Source: Saccharolobus solfataricus (GTDB lineage Archaea > Thermoproteota > Thermoprotei_A > Sulfolobales > Sulfolobaceae). From it: DNA of 32,000 nucleotides. How positions within the stretch are numbered: position 1 is the first letter of the stretch; the number at the start of each line of letters is the position of its first letter. The notes under the pieces are model-generated. The model was not told where the DNA came from and did no database searches. It saw only the letters and a list, made by a program, of their open reading frames with translations. Shown one piece after another: positions 5,075 to 28,860 of this stretch. The stretch spans positions 2,070,001 to 2,102,000 of the forward strand of contig NZ_LT549890.1 in assembly GCF_900079115.1 (NCBI RefSeq). The letters run 5' to 3'. The position numbers and the translations under genes were made by a program.

Positions 5075-8000
5075 ACTTCTTTCTTCTCTTTATCAAGATC
5101 AATGCAATAATAGTTATAATATCTAGTACGATTCCTATAGTCAAAATTGAACCACTGTCTAAACTCGGGTAACTAGACTTAGCATGATTATTACCAATCG
5201 TTGTGATGTAGTTTACATTATTGCCTACAGTACTATTTATTTTTATTATTTCTGAATTGACTAGACTTACATTTTGCACCTTAGAATTGATTAAGGTAAC
5301 TGTACCGTTTTCAACAATCAAGTTACGTATTATACTATTAATAAAAGTAGCATTATGCCCAACTACTATAGCTTTATCTATGAACTCATTAAAGGCTATA
5401 GTGCCATTGAATACGCTCACATATACATAAGGTAAGACAACAAATTGACTAGAAGGTGATATAGGATTTATGGATAAAGTATTAACGTCAAGAGTGGCAG
5501 GGAAATTCGTAGGAATTCCATCCGCAGATATACCCTCCACATAAACATCCCAATAGCCAGATATACCATAGGTAGAATAGCCTAAGGAATTAGTAGAAGA
5601 TCCGCTTGGAATTTCCAATTGACCAATCCAACTTCCGTTGATGTACGTTAAGGGAACACTGTATTGCAACTGTAAGTTATCGAACTGGCTGGAGAGATAG
5701 GAGGGAACAATAATAGCGGAAAATGAACCGTATTTAACCTCAGTGCCATTAGGATAAGTAATATTTGCTATAACGTATATTTGTTGATTTTGATACACAA
5801 TACTATTATTAGGTATTATTCTAACCTTAACGTTAAGTGAGTATGGAGACACGTAAATTTGAGTTAAACCTACGCCCTCTGCAGTAAAGTTAGAAGCGTT
5901 GTAAATTGCCTTAGTAACAACATAGTAGTATCCTGGCTTCAATTTTGGCAAGGTAATTTGAGTTATATATAATAAAGTATTCTGATAAGTAATTGCATTA
6001 ACGGGTATAGAGTAAACCTTATTTCCCGAGATATTATAGAAAGTTACAGTAACGTTAGGAGATCCTATTGCTAAGGCTTCAGCGAGTATTGTAACGTTTT
6101 GACCAGGGGATAGTACCACTGGGTTTGTAAAGACTGGAGGATAGACCGCATCAAGAATATATATGCCACTAACGAATTCGTCAAAGCCAAACACGTTCGG
6201 TATTTTAATAAAATAGACTCCACTTATGATATTGCTTGGCAACTGATAGACCCCGGTGAGGTAGCTAGATTCAATTTGGATACCTAAAATGGAAAGGTTT
6301 ATTAATGAGGTTCTTTGCAATTGAACGCTAGAAATAATTGACATTTTATTATTCATCTGATCATATTTATATATCAAAGCTGTAAGATTTGAAGGATTCC
6401 TCACTAGAGAACCATTGGGATAAATAAGTTGAACAACTATAGGAACGGGTTCAGGCTCTGGGAATAATGCAATAGGCGGAAAAATGAATTGAGCTTGATA
6501 ACCAATAGTAACGTAAGTAGAACCTTCTAAATTACCCGCTTTTACTATTACTTCCTCTATACCGCTTCCTTCTGCAACAAATTCACCAACCCAATAAGTT
6601 CCATTAAACGACAATGAGAACTGCTGAACAACAGAGCTACCATTATACACGATTCCAATTACACTTGAAGGTCTTATTCCGGTAATATTAGCGACTACTT
6701 TTACGACTTGCCCATCTAAATATGTAATATTATTAACCCCCACAGAAATACTTGAAGAGTGTATTACTTTAGGTAATAGTTGATATAAATATCCGGCATT
6801 TATTGATCCTAAACCAGTTACAGGATTCAATTCTGACGAATTAACGTAATAAGGTGTATTATATCCGAAACCTATGGGAGATAATGCACTTGTGTTTCTT
6901 AGCTCATAAAGAAAAGGATTTACAAATCCTAGCTTACCGTAGCTTTGAGTCATTAGGTCAATAATCCCACTAACTATTGGTGTAGCTAATGATGTGCCGC
7001 CCACTAAGTAAGTTTGATTGTAGTAATACAAGATAAAAGCACCAGTATATGGATTAGCGTCAGCTACAACATCTGGGACCACTCTAAAACCATTACTATC
7101 TTGATACCAAGGAGCGGGAAATAATGTACTATATCCACCGGTAGACGCTCCTAGCACGCTTTCACCGCTCCACGCTGTTTCCATAGTCTTATTCCCACCT
7201 ATGTAGACAGATGAACCGCCTACTGCTAAGACGTAAGGTATAGAAGCTGGAAATATTACGGAACCTTGAGGAGCTAAGAAGTAATTGTATCCATTTCCGC
7301 CTGCGTCACCAGAAGCAGCAGCGAAACTAATCCCCTCAACCTCACCTAGCCAATATTCATACATTAGCGAATTGACATATGAAAGAGGAATTAGACCTAA
7401 ATCTACATATAGTTCGGGGATACCAAAACTTTGCGATACTACGTTTACTTCATCTTGTTGAACTATATATGCTATAATTGCAGGAAGAGGGATATTTGGA
7501 TTGGCTACGTATAAAACAATTCCAGCATCAGGAGCTATAACATGAGCATACTCAACATCTAAAGAGATTTCCATTGCCCAACCTGTTGAAATACCATTAT
7601 TAGGATTGTAAGCTCCTATGGGGACAATTTTAAAGAATGGAGGATTTGGAATATTATACTGTTTGTCAAATTCTTGTAATTGTTGCTGTATGTAGGGATT
7701 ACCGTAGAAATCCAATATGCCTATAGCGGTGCCTTTTCCAGTTATGTTATGGGCGTGTAACCAGCTAATATTATAAGCATAGAGTAATTGACTAGGCTTT
7801 AATGCATTATATGCGACAGCTTGTGTAACGTTATAGAGTGTTGTGGGCTTATTTAGAATTAGTGAAGTAATATTAGTACCTATTACGATGGCGTTAGGAA
7901 TTACTGGAGAACCAAAAAATTCAAAGAACCTCTTTCCGTTGAGTTCATAAACGTAGAACTTCCCATTTAATGCTTTCTCTAGCTGTGAAACAGTTCCACT

Positions 8001-8300
8001 AGCCAATATTACATTCATATAACTGGTTGCGGATATATTTGATTGCCTTAACTGAGATAACGTTTTTGATATTTCCTCTGTTGGAATGAAAAGCTTTTCC
8101 ACTTGAGTCTGATTTAATATTACATGTTCTTGAACATATTGTTGTAAAAGAGTTAGATTACTCGGTGGAAAAACTATAGCCACCGTTAAGTAATAGTTTG
8201 GAGATAATGTTGTGATTGACTGGTTGTTTATATTCGTAATAGTCAATGGTAATACAATGTCACTTAAAGCTAAAATCAGCAAGAATATACTCCATGTCAT
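5067..8300 (-). CDS. Extracellular S53 (sedolisin/kumamolisin-like) serine-carboxyl peptidase with a long glycosylated C-terminal extension and a C-terminal membrane anchor
   Basis: 1077 aa with an N-terminal signal peptide and a pro-kumamolisin-like propeptide region. Sedolisin motifs are present: EISLDVEYAHVIAP, AAASGDAGGNG and the nucleophile motif GGTSLATPIVSGI. There are dozens of N-x-S/T sequons and a terminal TM helix followed by KRRKKFI. Confidence 0.8.
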   Translation of the reverse strand: MTWSIFLLILALSDIVLPLTITNINNQSITTLSPNYYLTVAIVFPPSNLTLLQQYVQEHVILNQTQVEKLFIPTEEISKTLSQLRQSNISATSYMNVILASGTVSQLEKALNGKFYVYELNGKRFFEFFGSPVIPNAIVIGTNITSLILNKPTTLYNVTQAVAYNALKPSQLLYAYNISWLHAHNITGKGTAIGILDFYGNPYIQQQLQEFDKQYNIPNPPFFKIVPIGAYNPNNGISTGWAMEISLDVEYAHVIAPDAGIVLYVANPNIPLPAIIAYIVQQDEVNVVSQSFGIPELYVDLGLIPLSYVNSLMYEYWLGEVEGISFAAASGDAGGNGYNYFLAPQGSVIFPASIPYVLAVGGSSVYIGGNKTMETAWSGESVLGASTGGYSTLFPAPWYQDSNGFRVVPDVVADANPYTGAFILYYYNQTYLVGGTSLATPIVSGIIDLMTQSYGKLGFVNPFLYELRNTSALSPIGFGYNTPYYVNSSELNPVTGLGSINAGYLYQLLPKVIHSSSISVGVNNITYLDGQVVKVVANITGIRPSSVIGIVYNGSSVVQQFSLSFNGTYWVGEFVAEGSGIEEVIVKAGNLEGSTYVTIGYQAQFIFPPIALFPEPEPVPIVVQLIYPNGSLVRNPSNLTALIYKYDQMNNKMSIISSVQLQRTSLINLSILGIQIESSYLTGVYQLPSNIISGVYFIKIPNVFGFDEFVSGIYILDAVYPPVFTNPVVLSPGQNVTILAEALAIGSPNVTVTFYNISGNKVYSIPVNAITYQNTLLYITQITLPKLKPGYYYVVTKAIYNASNFTAEGVGLTQIYVSPYSLNVKVRIIPNNSIVYQNQQIYVIANITYPNGTEVKYGSFSAIIVPSYLSSQFDNLQLQYSVPLTYINGSWIGQLEIPSGSSTNSLGYSTYGISGYWDVYVEGISADGIPTNFPATLDVNTLSINPISPSSQFVVLPYVYVSVFNGTIAFNEFIDKAIVVGHNATFINSIIRNLIVENGTVTLINSKVQNVSLVNSEIIKINSTVGNNVNYITTIGNNHAKSSYPSLDSGSILTIGIVLDIITIIALILIKRRKKFI

Positions 8301-8484
8301 TAAACCAAAAATAGTTTCTGAGAGTATATAGTTTTTCCCAATATCTGAGCTTCCAATGCTATTTAACTCCCCAGTTAAATAAGGAGAGCGATCACGCGAA
8401 AATGGTTTTTAAGGAAGCTTGAAAACTTTTAATTAGAGAACATAATAATCACTAGACTTTAGTGCTAAAAAGGTTAGCAATGAT

Positions 8485-8500
8485 TTTAAATTTATACATA
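8485..8500 (+). promoter_or_regulatory. Candidate TATA box/BRE for icd (leaderless transcript)
   Basis: TTTTAAATTTATACAT is centred about 23-25 nt upstream of the ATG at 8517. This is the usual Sulfolobus spacing between TATA box and transcription start for leaderless mRNAs. Confidence 0.35.
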
Positions 8501-8516
8501 GTAGAGTTAGAGTTTG

Positions 8517-9755
8517 ATGCAAAAGATACCAGAAGATGGAGAAGTAATTAAATTTGAAAATGGGAAATGGATTGTACCAAAAAAGCCAATAATTCTGTAT
8601 GTTGAAGGGGATGGAATAGGGCATGAAATAACACATGCTGCTATGAAGGTTATAAACAAAGCAGTGGAAAAAGCTTATGGATCTGATAGAGAAATTAAGT
8701 GGGTAGAAGTTCTAGCAGGAGATAAGGCAGAAAAGCTAACCGGAAATAGATTTCCTAAAGAGTCAGAGGAATTGATAGAGAAGTATAGAGTCTTATTAAA
8801 AGGTCCCCTAGAAACACCAATAGGCAAAGGCTGGAAATCCATCAATGTAGCAATTAGATTAATGTTGGATCTTTATGCAAATATAAGACCAGTAAAATAC
8901 ATTCCAGGTATAGAAAGTCCAATTAAGAACGCAGATAAGATTGACCTTATAATATTTAGGGAAAATACTGATGATTTGTACAGAGGAATAGAGTATCCTT
9001 ATGACAGTGAACAAGCAAAGAAAATTAGAGATTTTCTAAGAAAGGAGCTAGGAGTGGAAGTGGAAGATGATACTGGAATTGGTATAAAACTTATCAGTAG
9101 ATTTAAGACGCAAAGGATTGCGAGAATGGCTATAAAATACGCTATAGACCATAAACGAAAGAAAGTTACAATAATGCATAAAGGTAATGTGATGAAATAT
9201 ACCGAAGGAGCATTTAGAGAATGGTCATATGAAGTTGCAACAAAAGAATTTAGAGATTATATAGTTACTGAGGAAGAGGTAACAAAGAATTATAATGGAG
9301 TACCTCCTTCTGGGAAGGTCATAATAAATGATAGGATAGCTGATAACATGTTCCAACAGATAATTATCAGACCAGACGAGTACGATATAATATTAGCACC
9401 TAACGTAAATGGGGATTACATATCGGATGCTGCGGGCGCACTGGTAGGAAATATTGGTATGTTAGGCGGTGCAAATATAGGAGATACTGGAGGTATGTTC
9501 GAGGCAATACATGGTACCGCACCTAAGTATGCTGGTAAGAATGTTGCAAACCCCACTGGAATAATAAAAGGTGGTGAGTTAATGTTAAGATTTATGGGAT
9601 GGGATAAGGCTGCTGAGTTAATAGATTCTGCAATCATGGAATCTATAAGACAGAAGAAGGTTACTCAGGATTTAGCTAGATTTATGGGTGTAAGAGCCTT
9701 ATCAACTACTGAATATACTGACGAGCTAATTGCGATAATCGATACACTATCATAA
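8517..9755 (+). CDS. icd: NADP-dependent isocitrate dehydrogenase
   Basis: Full-length match to the isocitrate/isopropylmalate dehydrogenase fold, with motifs SINVAIRLMLDLYANIRP, IFRENTDDLY and NVNGDYISDAAGALVGNIGMLGGANIG. I prefer the ATG at 8517 over the in-frame TTG at 8514. Confidence 0.93.
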   Translation: MQKIPEDGEVIKFENGKWIVPKKPIILYVEGDGIGHEITHAAMKVINKAVEKAYGSDREIKWVEVLAGDKAEKLTGNRFPKESEELIEKYRVLLKGPLETPIGKGWKSINVAIRLMLDLYANIRPVKYIPGIESPIKNADKIDLIIFRENTDDLYRGIEYPYDSEQAKKIRDFLRKELGVEVEDDTGIGIKLISRFKTQRIARMAIKYAIDHKRKKVTIMHKGNVMKYTEGAFREWSYEVATKEFRDYIVTEEEVTKNYNGVPPSGKVIINDRIADNMFQQIIIRPDEYDIILAPNVNGDYISDAAGALVGNIGMLGGANIGDTGGMFEAIHGTAPKYAGKNVANPTGIIKGGELMLRFMGWDKAAELIDSAIMESIRQKKVTQDLARFMGVRALSTTEYTDELIAIIDTLS

Positions 9756-9763
9756 ATTTTACA

Positions 9764-9781
9764 GTAAATTTCCTACGTTTC
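9764..9781 (+). repeat. ORB-like repeat copy 1 (GTAAATTTCCTACGTTTC)
   Basis: Identical 18-mer to 9826-9843. Its reverse complement GAAACGTAGGAAATTTAC contains the GGAAA core typical of archaeal origin recognition boxes. Confidence 0.6.
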
Positions 9782-9825
9782 TATAACACTTTCGTACCCT
9801 AATCTCTCAATACAATTGTCTCTGT

Positions 9826-9843
9826 GTAAATTTCCTACGTTTC
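9826..9843 (+). repeat. ORB-like repeat copy 2 (GTAAATTTCCTACGTTTC)
   Basis: Perfect 18-bp direct repeat of 9764-9781, 62 bp downstream. Confidence 0.6.
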
Positions 9844-10008
9844 ATCTGAAAATCTAGCTATTAGAGCTTGGTTTAATTATACAAACTCAATATTTTTCTT
9901 TTTTCCTTCCTTTAATGTTTCAGATGAAATTAAGAGAGTGTCTCTTTAAAAACGATAATACTTTATACAAACGTACTACTTTTGGCGGTATATAGGGTAT
10001 TTTTAAGG

Positions 10009-10031
10009 ATGAAATCACAGGAAATTTACTG
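10009..10031 (-). repeat. ORB-like repeat copy 3, inverted orientation, imperfect
   Basis: The plus strand reads ATGAAATCACAGGAAATTTACTG. Its reverse complement CAGTAAATTTCCTGTGATTTCAT shares CAGTAAATTTCCT with copy 1 and then diverges. CACAGGAAA resembles the ORB core I recall from crenarchaeal origins. A degenerate partner, TTAAATTTTTCC, lies at 10045-10056. Confidence 0.5.
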
Positions 10032-10215
10032 CATAACTGGGGAGTTAAATTTTTCCGATAATTATAATATTTCAGAAAAAAGAATTTAAAGTCCAATATT
10101 TGCTTCACTATGGTTACATTACCTTGTAATAAGGAAAAACTATTTTTAGATTCTAGACTTTTAAGTTTCTAACAATTATGAAAAGATTAATAAGTTAATT
10201 CTTGAAGGTAGGTTT

Positions 10216-10592: not shown

Positions 10593-11777
10593 GTGCATGT
10601 GATAAGGGAAACATTGAAAGGTGGTAAGGGTGAAGTTATAAAAAACCCTAAGGTCTTTATCGATCCGTTATCTGTATTTAAGGAGATTCCGTTTAGAGAG
10701 GATATATTAAGGGATGCCGCAATTGCTATTAGGTATTTCGTTAAGAATGAGGTCAAGTTTTCGAACTTATTCCTTGGATTAACCGGTACCGGAAAAACTT
10801 TCGTGAGCAAATATATCTTTAATGAAATTGAGGAGGTGAAGAAAGAGGACGAGGAATATAAGGATGTAAAACAAGCTTATGTTAATTGCAGAGAGGTTGG
10901 TGGAACACCACAAGCTGTATTATCCTCTTTAGCTGGGAAACTAACTGGTTTTTCAGTACCAAAGCATGGTATTAATTTAGGTGAGTATATTGATAAGATA
11001 AAGAATGGCACAAGGAATATAAGAGCAATTATATATCTTGACGAGGTTGACACGTTAGTGAAGAGAAGAGGGGGAGATATAGTTCTTTATCAGCTGCTTA
11101 GATCAGATGCAAATATATCTGTTATAATGATTAGTAATGACATTAATGTTCGTGATTATATGGAGCCCAGAGTTTTATCATCTTTAGGGCCTTCGGTAAT
11201 CTTTAAACCTTACGATGCAGAGCAACTGAAATTTATTCTTTCGAAGTATGCTGAATATGGCCTAATAAAAGGTACCTATGATGACGAAATATTGAGCTAT
11301 ATTGCAGCTATTTCTGCTAAAGAGCACGGTGATGCAAGGAAAGCAGTAAATTTGCTTTTCAGGGCAGCTCAGCTAGCTTCAGGTGGGGGTATTATTAGGA
11401 AGGAGCACGTAGATAAGGCCATTGTGGATTATGAACAAGAGAGGCTTATAGAGGCCGTCAAAGCTCTTCCTTTTCACTATAAATTGGCTTTAAGAAGTCT
11501 GATAGAGTCAGAAGATGTAATGTCTGCTCATAAAATGTATACAGATCTTTGTAATAAATTCAAGCAAAAACCCTTATCGTATAGGAGGTTTTCAGATATC
11601 ATATCAGAATTGGACATGTTTGGGATAGTCAAGATAAGGATAATTAATAGGGGTAGAGCCGGTGGAGTTAAGAAATATGCATTGGTGGAAGATAAGGAGA
11701 AGGTATTAAGAGCGCTTAATGAGACTTTTGAAGATAGTATTAGTATTGGTGATTTTGATGATGTGGGAGAAAATTAA
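10593..11777 (+). CDS. cdc6-3: Orc1/Cdc6 replication initiator, probably the Cdc6-3 (Orc1-3) paralog
   Basis: 394 aa, AAA+ with Walker A GLTGTGKT, Walker B IIYLDEVD, sensor region ISNDINV, the DARKAVNLL lid and a C-terminal winged helix ([12 protein letters not shown]). The sequence matches my memory of S. solfataricus Cdc6-3. Confidence 0.93.
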
Positions 11778-20059: not shown

Positions 20060-21151
20060 TTACGTCTTCCTCATCATTAGCTCTGCTAGCTTATCGTTTA
20101 TATCTAAATAGTTTTCTCTAGCTAAGTTAAATAATAATGCGTATTTCTTTGCATCTTGTGAATTTATCTCCGAAAGTTCATCAGCTAGTTTGTTCAATAA
20201 CGTAACTTCTCTAATACTTTGCATAGCCCAAATATTCAAATATTTAATTGGTGTGAAGTCAGGTTCCCTTTCAGCCAGCACATCTATTCTAACTATTGGT
20301 GACGTTGTATTATATTGGTAATACAGAGAGTATATTGAGAGTGAGTCATTAAACACCTTTTTATATCGATTATAAGCCTTCGAGATTCCCTTAAGATCAT
20401 CCAATATTATCTGATTATTTATTAACGAATCCCAACTTATCCACCCTAGATATACTGGTTTATTAAACTCAGATTTTTCGAGCCTATATTTATACATAAT
20501 ACTAAATATAATATAGTTCTCTCTTGCCTTCATCAGTGCGGGATAATTATTTAAAAACTCCTTGATCAATATTCTATGAGAGAAGTTCTTTACTATTCCC
20601 ACGATTAATTTATTCTTACCCTTTAATCTTCTAAGTACTGTAGAACGATATAGTGCTAACTTATCCAGAGATAAGATATTTTCTATCTCAACATCCTCTT
20701 CATAATATGTTGGTGGATCCACAATAGGTCCATCGATAAATATCACGTCACACTCCTCACACTTCTCTATTAGACTCGTTTCTAAAGTAAGCATAAATAA
20801 AATGGATTTGTTGGATATCACGTTCTTATCGTAGTAATTCTCTATTATCTTGAAATCCTCAGCTATCTCAGATGGGACACTCTTTTTGTCCTTCTTTTTG
20901 CCTAAAATCTTCACAGCTCTAGCTAGGATAAGGGTTACATCACTTAACTCTATTTCATATTTGCTTCCGTCTACTGCACATGCAATGTGCTCAGAATCTA
21001 TAATCTCATCAAGTATTCCTATTTTTAAATCAATGCTATTTGATATTATATCGTCAAAAATTAAGTTAACTGCCATATTTATCTTTCCTCTCTCATTAAC
21101 ATCTTTGCTAGCTAACTCATTTACCTTTTTAATAATCTCATTTGTATTCAA
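20060..21151 (-). CDS. NurA-like nuclease (paralog, not the mre11-rad50 operon copy)
   Basis: 363 aa with a TTG start preceded by GGTGA 4 nt upstream. NurA-type motifs are present: ACAVDGS (Asp about aa 61), LTLETSL (Glu about aa 124), VIFIDGPIVDP (Asp about aa 140) and LIVGIVKNFSH (aa 182-192). Confidence 0.7.
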   Translation of the reverse strand: MNTNEIIKKVNELASKDVNERGKINMAVNLIFDDIISNSIDLKIGILDEIIDSEHIACAVDGSKYEIELSDVTLILARAVKILGKKKDKKSVPSEIAEDFKIIENYYDKNVISNKSILFMLTLETSLIEKCEECDVIFIDGPIVDPPTYYEEDVEIENILSLDKLALYRSTVLRRLKGKNKLIVGIVKNFSHRILIKEFLNNYPALMKARENYIIFSIMYKYRLEKSEFNKPVYLGWISWDSLINNQIILDDLKGISKAYNRYKKVFNDSLSIYSLYYQYNTTSPIVRIDVLAEREPDFTPIKYLNIWAMQSIREVTLLNKLADELSEINSQDAKKYALLFNLARENYLDINDKLAELMMRKT

Positions 21152-21837
21152 ACTTTCACCTTTATAGAAATATTTTTCTCAACAAGCATTTTTATAACCT
21201 TTATAGACTCTTCTAGGTTGTCTCTACTAATCTTGATTTCACCTTTGTCTATTAGTAATATCAATATGCTAATTTCTTTCTCATTTAGATTTATTTTTCT
21301 CAATTCATCCACGATAATCCCATACAACTCATTAAGGTGTTGTTTAGCTTGTATTTCAACTTCATTTAGCTTAGAGAGTGATCTTTCCTTGGGTATACTA
21401 AAAGTTTTTGCGTCTTTCTGAATTTTAAGGAAGTGATACAGTATTTTAGCATATAATATTAGTCTATTATTTATTTCCTCAATGCTCTTGATTTTCTCTT
21501 CTATTATCTTATTTAGGTCTTGTTCTATATCTTTCTCCAGGCTATCTACTTTACTTTTTATTTTATCTATATATCTGATTATCTCTTCAGCCGAGTTGAG
21601 CTTGGTTAGTTTCTCTATATCCGCTTTAACTTCCTCCAGCTTGTCTTCATATTTATTTAATTCGTTTATCTTTTTCTCTAAGGTCCTTAATTTCTTTAGA
21701 GACTCCTTTAGACTTTGTTTAGATTTTTCTAATTCCTCTATTGTCTCGGTAATTTTTCTATCCTCTTCTCTTAGTCTTTCTACATCCAGATTCTGTTTAT
21801 ATTGGGTTAGTCTTTCCATAAATTCAGCTAAATCCAT
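21148..21837 (-). CDS. Coiled-coil protein, function unknown
   Basis: 229 aa, almost entirely heptad-like K/E/L-rich sequence. The start overlaps the upstream gene by 14 nt and the stop overlaps the NurA-like start (TTGA). Confidence 0.6.
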   Translation of the reverse strand: MDLAEFMERLTQYKQNLDVERLREEDRKITETIEELEKSKQSLKESLKKLRTLEKKINELNKYEDKLEEVKADIEKLTKLNSAEEIIRYIDKIKSKVDSLEKDIEQDLNKIIEEKIKSIEEINNRLILYAKILYHFLKIQKDAKTFSIPKERSLSKLNEVEIQAKQHLNELYGIIVDELRKINLNEKEISILILLIDKGEIKISRDNLEESIKVIKMLVEKNISIKVKV

Positions 21838-24800
21838 ACTCTTCTAGAACCTCCTTTATTTCTTGAATTAATTGTGTTATTTTTTGTGTATTTCTCTCAA
21901 CGTTTTCTCTCAACTTAGGTAATTCTGGACTTATCTTTTCTAGATCATTTACAATCATCTCAATATTATTTAATTGGATACCGACTTTACCTAATGATGC
22001 GATTTCCTCAATTATCGTATCTTTTAACTCATCTCCAGATATTGATACGCCATTTAGTATCTCTTTCAGCAATTTGAATAATATGAAATAAAGGTTTGAG
22101 TTATCTTCAACGTGTATAGTAGCAAGTAAGTAATCGAGATATCGTTTAAACGACTCTGTTTGTCCCCTCTCATTTATCTCTTGAATTTTCCTCACTAACT
22201 TGTCCATTTGCATTTTGAAGTTGTCTTTAAGTTCATGAATTATCTCATATACCTTCTCTATTTCCTCAATTTTCTCGTTTATCTTTACATGCCTCTTGGC
22301 TTTCTCTACAACCTCCAATTTTTTGTAGATTTCCTCAACGATCTTGTCTGTCTCAATCACTGATTCTTCGGTCTTTCTTAATAATTCCAAATATATATTC
22401 GATAAATATAGATAATCATAACATAGCCTTATGTCTTTATTTTCAGTGCAAGATTTCTCATAAGCTTCTATGACCTCTCTCATTTCCTCAAGGCTTCTTA
22501 TTGCAGCTCCCCTCTTTTTAGCTGTTATGAAGTACCCATAGGTCGAGTATGGATTATCTAGTTTTTCCTTTATTTTTCTTATTTGCTCGTCTATTTTCAG
22601 ATAAATTACATCTTTATTTAAATATTTAGCAATTTCGCCACTAACTATTGACGAGTAAACTAAGAAGTCTAAGGTGGGATTTTGTCCAATTTTTTTATCG
22701 GGGCTAAAAATTTGATACGCAAAGACTAAGGGATTATTTTTATTATCTTTTCTTTTGTTATCTTGTGGACTTACATAATACATTATATAATTAAATACAA
22801 CCTCCTCTGCTTCTTGCTTGTATTTTTGCCTAATAAGACCCGCAAACAGCTTAGCGAATGAGGATAACGATTCTCCCGCTAGGTCTTCGAAATCTATGTA
22901 ATTGGATCTAATCTTTATTATACGATTACCATAGAAGTAAGTAATAATGTCATCAACAAACGTGTTGGATGTTTCTATATCTTCTAAATGGAACTGCTTA
23001 CTTCCATACATTCTAAATTTCTCATTAATTATCTCATTTACTTTCTCGAATAACTCATTAGCATTTACCATTTTTATTGATGGGTAAAATATTATCCAAT
23101 TGAATGATTGTATTAATCTCTTATTTCTAGGTATGGGAAGTTGGTTCAAGTTAAGATTATCTCTTATTTTTAGCAGTAGGGAGGATATCGAATTTTTCAG
23201 ATCTCCTAGTCTTAGTTCTATGGAATCAAGCCTAATTCTACTTTGTCCGTAGATTTTAGAGAATAGTAGATATAGCAACTGTCTTTTCTTTGGTGTGGTC
23301 ATTTTTAGTTCGATCAACGGTATTGATAGTCCGTCTAGAGTTTTGGATAGTTCTTCCTTCCTTATTTGAGGCTCTATTAGAATAAGACCGTGAATTAGCT
23401 CGTCACTTTCGTTGATCTCTTTTATTAAGTTCTTAATTTCATCCTCGTTAGCTGGATTTGCCAAAATAATAGTAATTTTCTTATTATCCATTATAAGTTT
23501 TAAAAACCTTATGTAGTCTTTGCTTCTATTTACACTATCTACCTTTATTCCTAGTACTTCCATTAAATATTCTAATGATTCAAGTTCCTTCTCTCTATCT
23601 GTAATATACGTATTCACGAACTGTAAGGCTTTATCTCTAATTTCTCTTGACTTAAACTCTACTATTAATCCTCCTATATTAGTATTCGCTATGCTCTCAA
23701 AAAAGCTCCAGGATATTGCATATGCATCAGTTTTACCGAATAGTGATAGTTTTTTTACATTCTCCTTTATTTTACTTATATCTATGCTTTCATGGAGTAT
23801 AGTTTCTATATTGTCGGATATAAATACATGAAAATCGTCTTGATAATATGTTAAAAGAAAGTCCTCAACGTATTCTTGACCTTTAGGGAACATCTCAATC
23901 CATTTTAGATATGGTATCAGTACCCCTTTTATTACATGACCTTCTAATTTCTTTATGACTAGTTTTTCGTCAGTAAATATTCTGCTCATTAAGACTTTGT
24001 ATAATTTACTTAACTCTTGGGAGTCCATTTCGTTCTCTAATTTTGTTAACATATCTAGTCTAACGGTCTCTCCTTCTGAGTTTAGATTAATTCCCTTATC
24101 CGATCTAGCCAGTTCGTTGAAAATTCTATCTACGTTAGGAAGATTATCGCATACTATATCGTTGAAGAACTTTACGTATTTTCTTCTTTCTTGATCTATT
24201 ACCCAGTAAGGCAAATCCATGTACTGTAGTATCTTTAAGTCATTTATGTTAGCCATATTTAGCATACACTTTAACATTAATAGAAACTCTAATTTAGATG
24301 GATTTTCTATACTAACTTTTCTTATTCTTTCTAGAAGTGAAGGGTAAGTTTCTGAAAATAAGTTATAAATTATGCCTCCAGTTCCAAATATTTTAGAATA
24401 TGCGCTTGGGGTCATGGAAAGGTATATTATTGAATTTCCAGTTGAATTAGCTAATTCCTTTACCTTGCTCCAAAAGTCCTTTATCTCGTTTTGATACTCT
24501 GCGAAGTAATCTACAGAACTTTCCACTTCATCAATAAGGTACACATTATTTTTGAACGTTAACAAATCTTCGGTTCGGCTTAAAAGTTCTACAAAGGGTA
24601 TCTTTATTACATTAATATTTCTATTTTTTGCATATTCCTCAATGATGTCAAGGAACGTACTTTTTCCTTGTCCCCAATCGCCGACAAGCGATATTATTTC
24701 TGGGGATTGTTTAATCTTAGATATCCTGTCTATCTCATCCTTAACTTGCTTGAAAAATCTTAATCTATTTATGTATAATGAGTTCTCTGTAATGCAAGAG

Positions 24801-24862
24801 AAAATTTGATAGATATAAGAGGAGTCAGATGCTGTTTCGCTTATTCTCTTAGAACAACTCAC
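21824..24862 (-). CDS. Large KAP-like P-loop NTPase with a long helical/coiled-coil C-terminal region
   Basis: 1012 aa with a GTG start preceded by GGTGA 4 nt upstream. Walker A is LVGDWGQGKSTFLDII (aa 59-74; the G-x-W-G-x-GKS form is typical of KAP NTPases) and Walker B is NVYLIDEVES (aa 105-114). The last 200 or so aa are predicted coiled coil. No TM insertion is seen. Confidence 0.65.
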   Translation of the reverse strand: MSCSKRISETASDSSYIYQIFSCITENSLYINRLRFFKQVKDEIDRISKIKQSPEIISLVGDWGQGKSTFLDIIEEYAKNRNINVIKIPFVELLSRTEDLLTFKNNVYLIDEVESSVDYFAEYQNEIKDFWSKVKELANSTGNSIIYLSMTPSAYSKIFGTGGIIYNLFSETYPSLLERIRKVSIENPSKLEFLLMLKCMLNMANINDLKILQYMDLPYWVIDQERRKYVKFFNDIVCDNLPNVDRIFNELARSDKGINLNSEGETVRLDMLTKLENEMDSQELSKLYKVLMSRIFTDEKLVIKKLEGHVIKGVLIPYLKWIEMFPKGQEYVEDFLLTYYQDDFHVFISDNIETILHESIDISKIKENVKKLSLFGKTDAYAISWSFFESIANTNIGGLIVEFKSREIRDKALQFVNTYITDREKELESLEYLMEVLGIKVDSVNRSKDYIRFLKLIMDNKKITIILANPANEDEIKNLIKEINESDELIHGLILIEPQIRKEELSKTLDGLSIPLIELKMTTPKKRQLLYLLFSKIYGQSRIRLDSIELRLGDLKNSISSLLLKIRDNLNLNQLPIPRNKRLIQSFNWIIFYPSIKMVNANELFEKVNEIINEKFRMYGSKQFHLEDIETSNTFVDDIITYFYGNRIIKIRSNYIDFEDLAGESLSSFAKLFAGLIRQKYKQEAEEVVFNYIMYYVSPQDNKRKDNKNNPLVFAYQIFSPDKKIGQNPTLDFLVYSSIVSGEIAKYLNKDVIYLKIDEQIRKIKEKLDNPYSTYGYFITAKKRGAAIRSLEEMREVIEAYEKSCTENKDIRLCYDYLYLSNIYLELLRKTEESVIETDKIVEEIYKKLEVVEKAKRHVKINEKIEEIEKVYEIIHELKDNFKMQMDKLVRKIQEINERGQTESFKRYLDYLLATIHVEDNSNLYFILFKLLKEILNGVSISGDELKDTIIEEIASLGKVGIQLNNIEMIVNDLEKISPELPKLRENVERNTQKITQLIQEIKEVLEEYGFS

Positions 24863-24866
24863 ATTT

Positions 24867-26480
24867 TCACCCTTCGCTTAAAATTAAATCAATTCTTTCC
24901 ACGTTTCCAGCGTATGATCCTAACCTAGGATCCCATGGGATTCTTACCAATGCCGGACTTTTCATTATTGACATAAGTCCACTTACTATTACGTATCCAG
25001 TATCTAATGATGTCAAATTCTTAGTTAATGATTCGGGTAAACCACCTGAAGCGGACATAACATATCTTACGTCTTCATGATATATTCTATGAAAGAAAAA
25101 GGTGTTAATCATGGATAATACGTATTTATCTATAAATGCTGGTCTTTGACTTACCAGAATTAGAGATGCCCCAAATTTTCTTCCTTGAGTAGCTAGTGTT
25201 ACCAATACGTCTTTTGTCAAGTTAGCGTTTACTGGATAATCAATAGAAGGTATGTAGTTCTGTGCCTCTTCTATCACAAATCCCAAAAACCTTTGATTAC
25301 CGTTGTATTTGGATCTCGTAAGATAATTAAATATTAATCTAGTTATGTAGCTTACGATGAGTTGTTTCGTAAGGACATCTACTCCTGGTGAACCATCAGC
25401 CGAGAAGTCTATTATTGCTAAACCTCTATTCCTCCAAATCACTTCTAATGTGTTCTCAGTCAAAGATGCAGAAGAGTTGACAAGTTGTAGTCTGCTAATT
25501 ACTTTGTTTTTGAATATTTCTAATGCGCTAGCAATTCCCCTAGCAGTACCCGTTGTGATTCCTATATCCTTATTTTGAGCCATCGTAAGAATCTCATTCC
25601 TTAGGGTCTCAATTCCTATTGCACTACCTAAAAGGGTATTATATTCCTTGCTCTCATGGTTTGCTAAAACTTGCTCTAGGAAATTTAGTTGCAGTGTGTT
25701 ATATGAAGCCTCACCGTATTTTAGAGACATAATAAATTCTGATAATTCTCTAGGCGTGAATATGGACAAATCTATTGTAAGCTTAATGTCGTTTTGCTCC
25801 TTAGGATCCTTCAATATATACCTCTTTATCCAGCCTCTTCCTTTAGATACTATGTCTAGATTTGTCGAAGCTAAATCTATGTAATCCCCATTCGCATCAA
25901 TTACAATCATCGGTAAGGCCGTGATCTTGTCTCCTATTTTTATGTTAGATAAAAGCTTAATTAAGTATCTCATGTTGTAGCTTTTTCCACTTCCAGTCTC
26001 TCCAAAAACTCCCATGTGCATTGTTATTGCATTAAGGTCTAACAATAATGGTATTTCAGAACCTGCTAAGGCTCCGTACTCAATTAATCCTTTTTTGTTT
26101 TTTATTCCATAAAAGGAAAGTAGCTCTTTTTCACTCTTTATTTCTGGTAATCTTCTTACGAAAGAGCCAGGTTTAGGGGTTGTATTATGGTCATATTTTT
26201 TTATTAAGTGCAAAGTTGCTTTTATTATTGTATTCATATCGAGAATTTCATATATCGAAGGTTCTTTTAATATTGACTTAGCTATCTCCCCCTTTTCGTC
26301 AAAGAACTCATTCAGAAATTCGTAATTTTCAACCCTGACTAGTGAAAGCTTCTCGGAATCATCAACTAATAACAATTGTCCTACGCTTATTTCCTCATCA
26401 GCTCTAATTAGTCCTTGCATTTCATTTGCTTCGCTCTTCTGCAGTACTATTCCTATAATCTCTCCCCTTTCCATCACCAT
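24867..26480 (-). CDS. HerA-like (FtsK/HerA superfamily) hexameric ATPase/translocase
   Basis: 537 aa. The N-terminus looks like a HAS barrel (GEIIGIVLQ...VGQLLLVDD...LVRVENYE). Walker A is GVFGETGSGKS (aa 157-167), Walker B is FLGFVIEEAQNYIP (aa 398-411), and the arginine-finger block is GRKFGASLILVSQRP (aa 433-447). Confidence 0.85.
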   Translation of the reverse strand: MVMERGEIIGIVLQKSEANEMQGLIRADEEISVGQLLLVDDSEKLSLVRVENYEFLNEFFDEKGEIAKSILKEPSIYEILDMNTIIKATLHLIKKYDHNTTPKPGSFVRRLPEIKSEKELLSFYGIKNKKGLIEYGALAGSEIPLLLDLNAITMHMGVFGETGSGKSYNMRYLIKLLSNIKIGDKITALPMIVIDANGDYIDLASTNLDIVSKGRGWIKRYILKDPKEQNDIKLTIDLSIFTPRELSEFIMSLKYGEASYNTLQLNFLEQVLANHESKEYNTLLGSAIGIETLRNEILTMAQNKDIGITTGTARGIASALEIFKNKVISRLQLVNSSASLTENTLEVIWRNRGLAIIDFSADGSPGVDVLTKQLIVSYITRLIFNYLTRSKYNGNQRFLGFVIEEAQNYIPSIDYPVNANLTKDVLVTLATQGRKFGASLILVSQRPAFIDKYVLSMINTFFFHRIYHEDVRYVMSASGGLPESLTKNLTSLDTGYVIVSGLMSIMKSPALVRIPWDPRLGSYAGNVERIDLILSEG

Positions 26481-26502
26481 TTAACATTACCTAAGAACGT
26501 TT

Positions 26503-27093
26503 TTAAACGATTAAGCTTCTGGGATTAGATAATGAAAGGTTTCTTATTACATTGGCTATAGTTTTGAAGGCCAATCTACCATATGGGTAAATTGTTATTT
26601 TTAAATGTGAGATTTCAGCTGCACCTTTCACTATTTCATAGTGATGCCTAGGGAGTATACCTATTAATCTCTCGTGTAATTTACTAATTTTTATAAGGGG
26701 CTTCGTTAATAACTCAACGAACTCTTCTTTTTCCTCTTTGCTCATAAGCGCTGGGGGGTAATCGTAATTGTTAAAAGGATAGCATTCCTCTAACTCTCTA
26801 GGCACTAATAGCATTGGTTCGGATACTGAATATACTTGTACTTTCTCCTCTAAATTATATTTCTGTAATATGGCGTAGGCTATTTTGTGTGTTGGTGATG
26901 ACGAGTAAGGTTTAACTACAGTACAAGGTAACAACAACGCAATCTCCTTATTTGAACTCCAGTTCTCTAGAAAGTAGCGATGCCATCTCATCACCACTGG
27001 GTGTCTGAACAGATCGTCAGTATTATCTCTTTTCGATATTCTAGTAAAGTCAGGCTTAAGGTATTCATATAGTTGTTCACATGCAGAGCTCAT
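26503..27093 (-). CDS. Stand-alone ArcS-type (DUF5591-like) domain protein carrying the archaeosine-synthase signature motif
   Basis: 196 aa. LLLPCTVVKPYSSSPTHK (aa 53-70, nt 26887-26928 for the core) fits the ArcS signature P-C-x3-K-P-Y-x2-S-x2-H as I recall it. The start overlaps the TGT-like gene by 17 nt and is preceded by GGAGGAGGT. Confidence 0.7.
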   Translation of the reverse strand: MSSACEQLYEYLKPDFTRISKRDNTDDLFRHPVVMRWHRYFLENWSSNKEIALLLPCTVVKPYSSSPTHKIAYAILQKYNLEEKVQVYSVSEPMLLVPRELEECYPFNNYDYPPALMSKEEKEEFVELLTKPLIKISKLHERLIGILPRHHYEIVKGAAEISHLKITIYPYGRLAFKTIANVIRNLSLSNPRSLIV

Positions 27094-27949
27094 TTACCTC
27101 CTCCTCTATCTCATCTTCCGCGAAAGTATCTAGTTTTTTAGAATATCTTATCAAAGGATTGTTGCTTTCATATTCTGAATTCAAGAGCACCCAAGCGTTG
27201 ATTAGACTTCTGTCTATCCAATTGTCGAATCTAATTTGAAATGGGTAGTGAGTTTTATCTAAAAATGATAATAAAATCTCTAGTTCCTCTTCGCTCGCTC
27301 TTTTAGTGCCCCACACTATTTTCCTATTTCCTACGTATCTTTCTCCTTTACCGGGTATAATAACCATACCATGTATGCCCTTAACTCTGTAGGTCGAAGT
27401 ATCCACGCTGTCGGCGTTGAAGTAGACTTTTCTCATGAAAGGTGATCCTGCACCTAAGACGTGTATTTTCCCCTTCCATAATTTCCTAACTAAATAATAT
27501 ATTGCAACCGCAAGTTTTTTGTTACCGCTCTTGTTTAGGGTAGGAGGGACGATCCCACCAAAAGCTACTAGGTCCGTATATTGGGAGTAGAAGTCTATGG
27601 ATTTCTTTATTGACTCAGGATCATAAGCGTGTATGACTGGTACTATTTTCTTATCGAAAACTGTGTATAAGTACTCGAAGTATTTGTAATTCAATTCTGA
27701 TGGCTTATGGCAAGGAATTGATGGTATATCAAGGCTCATATATTGTGTGGCATCTAGTATTTTATACTTCTCAACTACTTTTTCTATTTCAACTTTTATT
27801 CCTCTAACCATTATTTGGTATCCTCCAGAGTCTACCCATGTCTCATTTTCCCAAGATGGTCTATCCCAGTTTAATTGGTTAATCATTAATGGTTGTTTAA
27901 ACGTCCAAACTGGGATTTTCAGATCAGGTATGCCTAGTATTATCTTCAT
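27077..27949 (-). CDS. Minimal TGT-family (tRNA-guanine transglycosylase / DpdA-like) TIM-barrel protein
   Basis: 290 aa. TGT blocks are present: WVDSGGYQIM (catalytic Asp about aa 40), YMSLDIP, LVAFGGIVPP, IHVLGAGSP and NADSVDTSTYR (second Asp region, aa 180-185). There is no C-x-C-x2-C...H zinc cluster (only 2 Cys in the protein) and no C-terminal PUA-type extension. Confidence 0.7.
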   Translation of the reverse strand: MKIILGIPDLKIPVWTFKQPLMINQLNWDRPSWENETWVDSGGYQIMVRGIKVEIEKVVEKYKILDATQYMSLDIPSIPCHKPSELNYKYFEYLYTVFDKKIVPVIHAYDPESIKKSIDFYSQYTDLVAFGGIVPPTLNKSGNKKLAVAIYYLVRKLWKGKIHVLGAGSPFMRKVYFNADSVDTSTYRVKGIHGMVIIPGKGERYVGNRKIVWGTKRASEEELEILLSFLDKTHYPFQIRFDNWIDRSLINAWVLLNSEYESNNPLIRYSKKLDTFAEDEIEEEVNELCM

Positions 27950-27987
27950 TTTTCCTGATATTGGTATTACTATTGGGTTAAATCTTG

Positions 27988-27997
27988 ATTATATAAT
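27988..27997 (-). promoter_or_regulatory. Candidate TATA box for the six-gene operon (palindromic ATTATATAAT; could also serve the divergent gene)
   Basis: An AT palindrome centred about 44 nt upstream of the ATG at 27949. This implies a short leader containing AGGA. Confidence 0.3.
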
Positions 27998-28179
27998 AAT
28001 ACTACTTGTTTTCTTACGTTCTCGCTAATGGAAAATGCAATTTCGTATATTACATCAGTGAAACAACCCTTCATCACGCTTCAGTTAAGGTTGGTTTCCT
28101 CATATATTGTAATCATTGTTTTCAGTTGCTATTATCACTTACGCTCCCCTGCCTGTTAGATATTAAGCATCTAGTTATT

Positions 28180-28860
28180 GTGTCCAAAGGAGCAGTAATC
28201 CTTATATTGATTACATTATTTGTATATACTCTGAATATTATTAGTAATGCGTACTTAGTTAATGTAAAGATTTTAAGTCCTTTTCCGATCACGTTAATGT
28301 TTTCTGACTCACAAGGTGTTAAACTGGTTTCTTCCAATCAAACGTTAAATGTCAGCAGCTCAAATTTAAGGATTCAAGTGTTTGTTCTATCCCCCTACTC
28401 CTACTGTATATTTATCAACGGAAATAAGACCGACGAATTTAACGTTACTTTGTCTAATTACTCTCAATTTAACCTTACGGTAACAGTTATTCCTAAGTAT
28501 GCTTTTTTGAAAGTTAACGTTGTTGGTAAGGGTACAGCTTATATTGAATTAGATAATGGTAGCATAATTGCAGTAAGGAACTCTTCTGTAATTAGAGTGT
28601 ATAATGGTTCCAGTGTTCTTCTTGAGGCTAACGGTGATCTTATTAATTGGTCAAATGGGGCTAATACTATGACGCTTTGGTATACAGTTGGTGGCAACTC
28701 GACAATTACGGCATTTTTTGGTAATTCTAGTATTCTTCCAAAGTCTGGTACTGTTAAACCTACAGTAAACTACACTGAAGTTGGGCTTAGTTTATTTGCG
28801 GTAGGATTTTTCATATTATATAAAATATATTCTAGAAAAGACCAAGATACTAATGTTTGA
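28180..28860 (+). CDS. Secreted or membrane glycoprotein, function unknown; start uncertain
   Basis: The ORF-track entry starts at a TTG at 28006, which gives an implausible N-terminus. The GTG at 28180 gives a signal-anchor-like VSKGAVILILITLFV. The protein has many N-x-S/T sequons and a C-terminal TM helix (LSLFAVGFFILYKIY). Confidence 0.4.
   Translation: MSKGAVILILITLFVYTLNIISNAYLVNVKILSPFPITLMFSDSQGVKLVSSNQTLNVSSSNLRIQVFVLSPYSYCIFINGNKTDEFNVTLSNYSQFNLTVTVIPKYAFLKVNVVGKGTAYIELDNGSIIAVRNSSVIRVYNGSSVLLEANGDLINWSNGANTMTLWYTVGGNSTITAFFGNSSILPKSGTVKPTVNYTEVGLSLFAVGFFILYKIYSRKDQDTNV

Follow-up and report, generated by a model that had tools for sequence, protein, structure and literature searches.

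We analysed a 32,000-nucleotide stretch of the Saccharolobus solfataricus chromosome (contig NZ_LT549890.1, positions 2,070,001 to 2,102,000; here called the window). From position 27949 down to 20060, its minus strand carries six closely set open reading frames (ORFs), which correspond to SSO2197-SSO2202 of S. solfataricus P2 and to M164_0014-0019 / SiRe_0014-0019 of S. islandicus. In order of transcription, they encode a TGT-like protein, a DUF5591 protein, a HerA-family protein, a large ATPase, a coiled-coil protein and a NurA-family protein (Table 1). An earlier note, made from the sequence alone, had described the six genes as one translationally coupled unit and as a candidate 7-deazaguanine DNA-modification and nuclease system. 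Recomputation of the six ORFs, their GTG and TTG starts and the five junctions gave an exact match to that description: from the TGT gene to the NurA gene, the junctions are a 17-nt overlap, a 22-nt gap, a 4-nt gap, a 14-nt overlap and a 4-nt overlap. Shine-Dalgarno-like motifs were said to precede the internal starts. This holds for four of the five, where they lie 5-15 nt 5′ of the start (GGAGG before the DUF5591 and coiled-coil genes, GGTGA before the ATPase and NurA genes), but the HerA start has a weak motif only. Every quoted peptide motif was found: DSGGYQ (residue 40) and DSVDTS (180) in the TGT-like protein, PCTVVKPYSSSPTH (56) in the DUF5591 protein, GETGSGKS (160) in HerA, GDWGQGKS (61) in the ATPase, and DGS, IDG and GIVK at residues 61, 139 and 185 of NurA. 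On inspection of the sequence, the TATA-like element TTATTATATAAT lies about 39-50 nt 5′ of the TGT start codon, and the intergenic region that contains it is presumed to be the operon promoter. A scan with a sigma-70 promoter and terminator model, which is not applicable to archaea, gave no enrichment.

Table 1. Genes of the operon and its presumed promoter region, in window coordinates.
Feature	Coordinates	Strand	Details
TGT-superfamily guanine transglycosylase	27077..27949	-	290 aa; SSO2202 / M164_0019, arCOG00996
DUF5591 / ArcS-core (C1 domain) protein, 'ArcS2' type	26503..27093	-	196 aa; SSO2201 / M164_0018, arCOG00995
HerA-family hexameric DNA translocase, paralog of repair HerA (by profile score)	24867..26480	-	537 aa; SSO2200 / M164_0017
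P-loop ATPase, AAA+/KAP-like N-terminus	21824..24862	-	1012 aa, GTG start; SSO2199 / M164_0016, arCOG07313
Coiled-coil protein	21148..21837	-	229 aa; M164_0015, arCOG08073
NurA-family nuclease	20060..21151	-	363 aa, TTG start; SSO2197 / M164_0014, arCOG07312
Presumed operon promoter region, common to divergent gene 28006-28860	27950..28005	-	A/T-rich TATA-like element TTATTATATAAT, ~27988-27999

The TGT-like protein showed no Pfam match and a weak match to NCBIfam TgtA (E=5e-4). A family profile of 75 sequences was compared with the PDB and matched the ArcTGT of P. horikoshii (1iq8) alone, with E=4e-6. In this alignment D40, D74 and D183 correspond to ArcTGT D95, D130 and D249, and G132-I133-V134 corresponds to G196-V197-V198. 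D95 and D249 are reportedly the catalytic Asp pair of ArcTGT, and D130 is said to bind guanine. V197/V198 have been tied to preQ0 (7-cyano-7-deazaguanine) specificity (PMC5699537). Invariant in the 75 homologs are D40, S41, G42, G43, Q45, D74, H163, G166 and D183. An AlphaFold2 (AF2) model of the protein (pLDDT 92) was searched with Foldseek; in the PDB, ArcTGT 1j2b/1iq8 ranked first (E=5e-10, TMq 0.6), with over 40 entries for bacterial TGTs behind it, and comparison with the rudivirus ortholog gave a TM of 0.87. Judged from alignment and model, the 290-aa protein is a TGT fold, a (beta/alpha)8 barrel with intact active-site residues. The TGT assignment, which fails in Pfam, is thus borne out by the family profile and by the structure comparison. 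It is a TGT of the catalytic type rather than the N-terminal domain of ArcS: an NCBIfam scan of the 75 family members matched 45 to TgtA, 12 to DpdA and none to ArcS, and the catalytic Asp is kept.

The TGT-like protein consists of a single TIM-barrel domain and lacks the PUA, C1, C2 and C3 tRNA-binding domains. Its score against TIGR00432 (ArcTGT/TgtA) is 18.6 bits, compared with a cutoff of 350. The window protein did not match NF041059, the model of bacterial DpdA, at E<=0.1, and the 12 matches among its relatives are weak. With no Zn site and no DpdA-specific features, it is not a bacterial DpdA sensu stricto; rather, its sequence leads us to predict a DNA 7-deazaguanine-inserting enzyme of the archaeal/viral 'DpdA' type. 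Fold comparison is uninformative for telling DNA-acting from tRNA-acting TGTs, as both match equally. Candidates for a radical-SAM partner (RaSEA/QueE) near the TGT-like gene were also rejected: the enzyme near the window is of the TIGR04084 SPASM maturase type, and in Ignisphaera the neighbouring gene encodes Tes, the tetraether lipid synthase.

The second protein of the operon matched Pfam DUF5591 (E=2e-19) and the NCBIfam ArcS alpha model (E=1e-21). The latter match covers model positions 261-409 of 575 only and reaches 77 bits against a cutoff of 440. The signature PC-x3-KPY-x2-S-x2-H lies at residues 56-69 and is kept in 15 host and viral homologs. Of the full ArcS architecture, Nt-C1-C2-PUA, this 196-aa protein has the C1 core only. 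ArcS is active on the bare preQ0 nucleotide (PMC11298593). The DUF5591 protein is predicted, from its motif and domain content, to tailor the inserted 7-deazaguanine.

HerA matched Pfam DUF87 (E=3e-37), and in the PDB it best matched, along its full length, S. solfataricus HerA (4d2i, E=7e-22). Against the NCBIfam equivalog HerA_Thermprot it scored 98.7 bits, the cutoff being 800; by this measure the window HerA is a paralog and not the canonical repair ortholog. No Mre11 or Rad50 was found in the operon with Pfam. Walker A residues G163/G165/K166, E405 and R434/R465 are conserved in 16 HerA homologs. The last protein matched Pfam NurA above the cutoff (E=3e-17, residues 57-296), and a single-sequence query of the PDB gave no match. 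The Asp of its DGS motif (residue 61) is kept in six Sulfolobales orthologs, and E124, D140-G-P, G185..K188 and R288 are invariant in all eight aligned sequences. Following published NurA structures, we take the DGS Asp, the Glu and the IDG Asp to be the catalytic residues. The protein is predicted to be an effector nuclease that works with HerA. The profile searches therefore confirm the DUF5591, DUF87/HerA and NurA families named in the earlier note.

The large ATPase had been called KAP-like, which holds marginally. The KAP_NTPase profile gave 20.7 bits against a cutoff of 20 (E=2.7e-4) and covers profile positions 18-67 of 293, that is, about 50 residues around the P-loop; there is also a weak BrxC_BrxD P-loop match (E=8e-3). 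However, the fold is AAA+-like and about 700 residues are novel sequence. In the AF2 model (pLDDT 85), no transmembrane insert is apparent in the secondary structure, and in Foldseek only the N-terminal ~230-300 residues match, to AAA+ proteins (NSF, ORC/Cdc6, Hda/DnaA, RFC; TMq 0.13-0.16). From the N-terminus, the protein comprises an AAA+/KAP-like NTPase domain (~50-260), a middle part of novel sequence and a stretch of long, coiled-coil-type helices at the C-terminus. Walker A residues W63/G64/G66/K67 and Walker B residues D111/E112 are invariant. The family is small, with 17 representatives among 1.84 billion proteins, and all examined homologs sit between HerA and NurA genes. This ATPase is a candidate sensor or regulator of the nuclease module.

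For the 229-aa protein, only weak coiled-coil-type profile matches were obtained. Its orthologs are 25-52% identical and have a conserved C-terminal domain of about 45 residues with the motif LIDKGEIKIS...EKGI. It is probably a structural partner of the large ATPase. At the metagenomic locus L072, which has no separate coiled-coil gene, a clearly homologous ATPase (5651-10033, 1460 aa) ends in LVERGSVKIS, like the C-terminus of the coiled-coil protein, although the HMM (hidden Markov model) match is not significant. This hints at a gene fusion and at a physical complex of the ATPase and the coiled-coil protein. The lineage of L072 and the related locus L013 is known from metagenomes; one of the contigs was binned as Thermogutta and is probably misbinned. 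When the 1012-aa ATPase was aligned by hhalign with the large proteins of more distant cassettes, the probabilities were 1.7% for locus L034 and 14.6% for Conexivisphaera, whose large protein has some motifs in common with the ATPase (TPKKRQLLYLLF, LEDIE).

To survey the gene neighbourhood, 60 related loci were searched with tblastn and iterated HMMs, with targeted look-ups in addition. A contig scan by one peptide pattern missed known carriers, including S. solfataricus, and is unfit for prevalence statistics. The complete cassette was found in the same order in a Sulfolobaceae metagenome-assembled genome (MAG), in Acidianus hospitalis, in a third genome that is likewise a MAG, in Sulfolobus sp. 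UBA167 and in S. caldissimus. Identities to the window proteins are 55-60% for the TGT-like protein, 54-60% for DUF5591, 61-65% for HerA, 36-41% for the ATPase, 38-44% for NurA and 27-34% for the coiled-coil protein. Since the same order recurs where the proteins are only 27-65% identical, the six-gene arrangement is not due to chance. The HerA-ATPase-coiled-coil-NurA block is always intact, and the notion of a single unit applies to Saccharolobus and Acidianus, where the six genes lie together. This notion does not extend to Sulfurisphaera: in Sulfurisphaera javensis, this block and the DUF5591/TGT genes are on different contigs of one assembly, and S. tokodaii is split likewise, with ST0762-0765 separate from ST1683-1684 in the ortholog table of a transposon sequencing (Tn-seq) study (PMC6249222). 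In both species, the two parts are still present in the same genome. In S. caldissimus (L069, 11010-11441), a 143-aa gene with a weak TM_HPP match is inserted between the DUF5591 and HerA genes, so the junction between the two parts tolerates insertion.

Outside the Sulfolobales-type cassette, gene order varies. It is TGT-DUF5591-NurA-HerA followed by a 1478-aa AAA/KAP-type ATPase in Desulfurococcales, DUF5591-TGT-HerA-1460-aa ATPase-NurA at L013 and L072, and DUF5591-TGT and then HerA, a 1201-aa protein and NurA in Conexivisphaera. The TGT gene adjoins NurA in Stygiolobus and HerA in Thermoproteaceae (Thermoproteales), Caldivirga and Njordarchaeota, while in Thermoproteus a HerA-NurA pair lies 2.5 kb from it. 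The operon is thus composed of two separable modules, TGT plus DUF5591 and HerA-ATPase-coiled-coil-NurA, which have been linked repeatedly; a check of gene neighbourhoods, proposed at the outset, shows them co-occurring across Thermoproteota in several gene orders. The same proposed check asked whether known defence genes lie nearby: the site is fixed and lies among housekeeping genes, not in a defence island. The 5′ flank of the TGT gene, made up of the divergent gene 28006-28860, a gene for a DUF255 thioredoxin-domain protein and an SDR gene, is conserved in Acidianus, UBA167, Aramenus and others. No integrase or transposase is present in the window, which holds housekeeping genes only; together with the conservation of the flank across genera, this rules out a mobile defence island.

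Relatives of the modification pair are found in viruses. STSV1, STSV2 and STSV4, which infect S. tengchongensis, carry two adjacent genes whose products are 70% (TGT-like) and 60% (DUF5591) identical to the window proteins. Ligamenvirales and Bicaudaviridae have been counted as DpdA-encoding (Hutinet 2019), and the STSV2 pair was named DpdA and ArcS2 by Cui et al. 2023 (PMC10516641). In the same work, STSV2 DNA was found to contain dCDG, the deoxynucleoside of 7-carboxy-7-deazaguanine (CDG), at 149 per 10^6 nt, and DpdA2 together with ArcS of phage nt-1 gave rise to dG+, the deoxynucleoside of archaeosine (G+), in plasmid DNA. A neighbour-joining tree places the STSV genes inside the Saccharolobus host clade, as fits a viral capture of the host mark, and the rudiviral genes on a deep branch of their own. 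S. tengchongensis itself encodes a TGT-like protein (V6M85_05415, 80% identical) and a large ATPase (V6M85_05430), with locus tags spaced as in the cassette. For want of a Pfam TGT match, this TGT-like copy may have escaped notice. TGT-like proteins about 40-44% identical to that of the window also occur on contigs labelled as bacterial, namely L027, L028, L049 and L050 (Streptomyces gamaensis, Planomonospora alba, Paenochrobactrum glaciei, Nocardioides koreensis), and cluster P0066 is named 'MULTISPECIES ... [Bacteria]'. This is the same level of identity as that of the SIRV proteins, and the contigs are most likely Sulfolobus rudivirus DNA that contaminated culture-collection sequencing.

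The essentiality of the six genes was taken from the Tn-seq supplements for S. islandicus M.16.4 (PMC6249222). The TGT-like gene M164_0019 (1 insertion, log2 fold change -8.5, p=4.8e-6) and the DUF5591 gene M164_0018 (0 insertions, log2 fold change -5.7) are classified as essential. All other genes of the operon are non-essential, with 24 insertions in M164_0017 (HerA), 17 in M164_0016 (ATPase), 9 in M164_0015 (coiled-coil) and 19 in M164_0014 (NurA), and so is the flanking gene M164_0020 with 22. Polar effects cannot explain the essentiality of the pair, as all downstream genes are dispensable. This is the first half of the pattern of a restriction-modification or addiction system, an essential modification pair beside four dispensable nuclease-module genes. 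The authors of the Tn-seq study did not discuss the six genes; they did recognise, as a class, genes 'toxic when disrupted', antitoxins among them, and their text names nurA among the essential archaea-specific repair genes (PMC6249222). Their ortholog table lists no ortholog of any of the six genes for S. acidocaldarius and a HerA match only for M. sedula. The tRNA of S. acidocaldarius nevertheless carries G+15 (PMC7668247). Archaeosine can thus be made in tRNA without the pair, and whether the pair is essential depends on the genome in which it sits. Furthermore, G+ is non-essential in H. volcanii and T. kodakarensis (PMC5699537).

Our data point, with a probability of roughly 0.55, to a two-module Dpd-like modification-restriction ('addiction') system of Thermoproteota. 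A less specific statement, namely a functional link between the two modules with DNA as their target, seems likely. In such a system, the TGT-like and DUF5591 proteins would probably form a complex that remakes the barrel and C1 core of ArcTGT/ArcS without the tRNA-binding C2 and PUA domains. This modification module would swap a small fraction of genomic G for a 7-deazaguanine (preQ0 or CDG-type), tailor the base and so mark self DNA. The nuclease module, composed of the HerA translocase, NurA, the lineage-specific AAA+/KAP-like ATPase and its coiled-coil partner, would load on DNA and degrade it processively unless it is marked. Loss of modification with an active nuclease module would be lethal, whereas loss of the nuclease module would be harmless. 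Viruses would escape by marking their DNA themselves, with copies of the modification genes (TGT plus DUF5591 in STSV1/2/4, only TGT in rudiviruses). We infer in this scheme that host DNA, and not RNA or protein, is the substrate, and likewise the identity of the base, discrimination by the nuclease module according to the mark, and the reader of the mark. The suggestion of the earlier note that base exchange and tailoring are paired with DNA processing for marking plus degradation is supported by the catalytic residues, the STSV relatives, the co-occurrence of the modules and the Tn-seq data. Its alternative, modified-DNA surveillance, is disfavoured, since the Tn-seq pattern favours marking that protects from the cell's own nuclease.

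A number of observations weigh against a Dpd-like system. There is no report of 7-deazaguanine in Saccharolobus chromosomal DNA. S. tengchongensis was reported to encode no proteins of the queuosine (Q) or G+ pathways and to have no 7-deazaguanine in its tRNA (PMC10516641); this reported lack leaves the source and identity of the base unexplained, and the dCDG of STSV2 hints at CDG and not preQ0 as the substrate. The structural Zn site CxCx2C...H, which bacterial DpdA has in common with the tRNA TGTs of bacteria, archaea and eukaryotes, is missing from the TGT-like protein, whose only cysteines are C80 and C289; the family as a whole has no invariant Cys. Its fold is no nearer to phage DpdA2/DpdA3 than to tRNA TGTs (TMq ~0.5-0.6). 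About 30 rudivirus records have the TGT-like gene alone (28-40% identity), without module proteins. In Ignisphaera (L067/L068), a TGT-like gene (8001-8963, ~38% identical) lies between the Tes and ribonucleotide reductase genes, and no DUF5591, HerA or NurA gene was found in the examined 8-10 kb flanks; this clade may have a different role. PADLOC recognised HerA alone of the six proteins. The locus is old, keeps a fixed place on the chromosome amid housekeeping genes and is inherited vertically, and the TGT, DUF5591 and HerA genes diverge at the rate of housekeeping genes, all of which is unusual in defence systems. Finally, the pair could be essential because of a housekeeping role, or because of transposon-driven misexpression of downstream genes.

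A more far-reaching version of the Dpd-like scheme is doubtful. It holds that the operon represents a new restriction class, in which a processive HerA-NurA translocase-exonuclease gated by a lineage-specific AAA+ sensor, and not an endonuclease, both discriminates and kills, and in which the mark is a 7-deazaguanine that does not come from preQ0, for example CDG inserted directly. If this were true, direct insertion of CDG would explain how STSV2 has dCDG although its host reportedly lacks a QueC/preQ0 pathway. No cellular organism before Saccharolobus would then be known to carry dCDG-type marks, and no archaeon to have a 7-deazaguanine epigenome on its chromosome.

The site and the divergence rate of the pair would also suit a role in genome maintenance without any self/non-self logic, which we regard as unlikely. 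The pair would perform an intrinsically essential nucleic-acid job, for example a DNA mark for replication or repair, or base-exchange repair of guanines damaged at high temperature and low pH, and HerA-ATPase-NurA would be a dispensable paralogous end-resection machine acting on the same intermediates. This would agree with an essential pair in a vertically inherited locus about 8 kb from the Orc1/Cdc6 gene and found in every S. islandicus, S. solfataricus and S. shibatae genome listed, with TGT, DUF5591 and HerA diverging like the flanking housekeeping genes and with repair HerA 4d2i as the nearest relative of the window HerA. However, the absence of all six orthologs from the S. acidocaldarius list, and of all but a HerA match from that of M. 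sedula, speaks against a universal essential role in Sulfolobales. The presence of the TGT gene in viruses of three families fits anti-restriction better than repair, and the ATPase, coiled-coil protein and NurA evolve fast (27-44% identity where HerA has 61-65%).

It seems improbable that the operon merely joins unrelated neighbours, a split tRNA archaeosine enzyme of the arcTGT/ArcS type beside a paralogous HerA-NurA repair operon. Such a split enzyme would be in line with the arCOG and RefSeq names (queuine/archaeosine tRNA-ribosyltransferase or related), with tRNA enzymes as the best sequence and structure matches, and with the existence of split arcTGT and ArcS forms; but the PUA, C2 and C3 domains are missing, S. 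acidocaldarius makes G+15 with no ortholog of either gene listed, and both genes are essential although G+ is dispensable in H. volcanii and T. kodakarensis. Moreover, the TGT gene is adjacent to HerA or NurA in at least five lineages with different gene orders, and neither the viral homologs nor the dCDG in STSV2 DNA would be expected.

A type IV-like surveillance system, in which HerA-NurA attacks viral DNA containing 7-deazaguanine and the host pair serves as a sensor or decoy and not as a self-marker, is quite improbable. The lethality of losing the pair beside dispensable nuclease genes would be left unexplained, the catalytic Asp residues are invariant, and with STSV genes that are host-derived copies of the pair, the virus would mark itself for destruction. 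Viruses of these hosts do encode TGT-family enzymes, and TGT folds can be reused as binders, as in Cap10 of type IV CBASS, which would speak for such a sensor. The idea that the pair attaches a 7-deazaguanine to, or recognises it on, a module protein such as the ATPase and thereby restrains a toxic nuclease complex would explain an 'antitoxin-like' essentiality, is compatible with the absent Zn site and nucleic-acid-binding extensions and has a parallel in the TGT-family enzyme that acts on a protein conjugate in type IV CBASS Cap9/Cap10 (10.1101/2025.04.06.647259), but it is very improbable given that a QueC-like (Cap9) partner is absent, the closest characterised context is viral DNA modification and rudiviruses keep TGT without any module protein.

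Compared with known systems, the DpdA and ArcS2 pair of STSV1/2/4 is closest to the modification module: it has the same two genes in the same order with identical catalytic and ArcS motifs, and both pairs are without tRNA-binding domains. The viral pair stands alone, without HerA, ATPase or NurA, whereas the Saccharolobus pair is chromosomal, essential and in an operon with a nuclease module. Cellular homologs and their neighbourhood were not described by Hutinet 2019 or Cui 2023 (PMC10516641), in which the host is said to be without the pathway. In bacterial Dpd (Gedara 2023, PMC10164549), with dpdA/B/C for modification and dpdD-K for restriction, too, a TGT-family enzyme with conserved catalytic Asp residues marks self DNA by putting a 7-deazaguanine at a small fraction of its G residues, and this is tied to multi-protein ATP-dependent restriction. 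The archaeal operon differs in lacking DpdB (a ParB-like ATPase) and DpdC, with a DUF5591/ArcS core in the tailoring place of DpdC, in the absence of the CxCx2Cx22H Zn site, and in a restriction module of HerA-NurA plus AAA+ instead of the DpdD-K helicases and nucleases. The Dpd models of PADLOC matched none of the six proteins, and the window contains no ParB-like gene.

The nuclease module resembles the HerA-Mre11-Rad50-NurA resection operon in having HerA first, NurA last and two coiled-coil-bearing proteins between them. In the window, however, HerA and NurA score far under the equivalog cutoffs and count as paralogs, the places of Mre11 and Rad50 are taken by a single-P-loop AAA+/KAP-like ATPase of no relation to them and by a small coiled-coil protein, and all four genes are non-essential. 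The BRC (BREX-related capture) and other HerA/FtsK 'capture' systems (PMC12839542, PMC10853773) likewise combine a HerA/FtsK translocase, an ORC/Cdc6-type AAA+ ATPase and an effector nuclease, and a subset of BRC loci has a TGT that was proposed to mark self DNA. They differ in that PglZ, DUF6079/BrxC, STAND NTPase and DUF4007 are absent from the six proteins and from the window, as is GNAT, and that the nuclease here is NurA, which is mentioned in neither of the two papers, and a DUF5591 partner is present. Sulfolobales and Thermoproteota are not mentioned in either paper. The Dnd/DndFGH phosphorothioate systems also consist of separable, often uncoupled modification and HerA-domain restriction modules, and PADLOC gave a weak match of HerA to the DndH C-terminus (E=4e-4). 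Their mark, however, is backbone sulfur and not base exchange, and no homologs of DndA-E, DndF or DndG are present.

The combination of HerA and NurA with TGT, DUF5591 and a KAP-like ATPase is not described in the searchable literature, which does not include subscription-only work such as arCOG 'dark matter' surveys. The earlier note had not recognised a described system; this stands for the operon as a whole but not for the modification pair, which has already been named DpdA/ArcS2 in viruses. Known, then, are the modification pair in viruses and the logic of bacterial Dpd, of Dnd-DndFGH and of the proposed BRC systems. New, and absent from searchable papers, are the system of six genes in cells, its HerA-NurA/AAA+ restriction module and the connection with the Tn-seq phenotype. 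Chromosomal 7-deazaguanine DNA modification is established for bacterial Dpd islands only and, in archaea, is known from viruses only. The operon is therefore a strong candidate for the first archaeal cellular 7-deazaguanine DNA-modification system. Its accessory chemistry would differ from that of Dpd, with an ArcS core for DpdB/DpdC, and so would its executioner, a HerA-NurA paralog with a novel AAA+ protein. A Dpd-like system would explain why two 'tRNA-ribosyltransferase-like' genes are essential in S. islandicus, why rudiviruses and STSV carry TGT genes and where the DpdA/ArcS2 pair of STSV2 originated. The best genetic models of Crenarchaeota, S. islandicus (REY15A and M.16.4) and S. solfataricus, carry the operon, which makes the predictions directly testable, and the system may account for part of the transformation barrier and virus host range in these strains.

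Further observations concern other genes. In the Tn-seq data, M164_0224, encoding a QueD-like 6-pyruvoyl-tetrahydropterin synthase (SSO2412 ortholog), and its uncharacterised neighbour M164_0225 are essential, with 1 and 0 insertions, respectively (PMC6249222). This could bear on the supply of 7-deazaguanine precursors, or merely on pterin synthesis. The divergent gene 28006-28860 on the plus strand (SSO2203 / M164_0020) encodes a 284-aa protein with no family match, hydrophobic stretches and many N-x-S/T sequons. It adjoins the TGT-like gene across Sulfolobales genera, yet its product evolves fast (25-52% identity). At 9757-10036 of the window, 5′ of the Orc1/Cdc6 gene (10593-11777), which comes after the isocitrate dehydrogenase gene, GTAAATTTCCTACGTTTC forms an exact 18-nt direct repeat at 9764 and 9826; an inverted copy lies at 10019-10036, and there are further inverted repeats. 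Situated about 8 kb from the cassette, this region resembles a replication origin with ORB-type (origin recognition box) elements.

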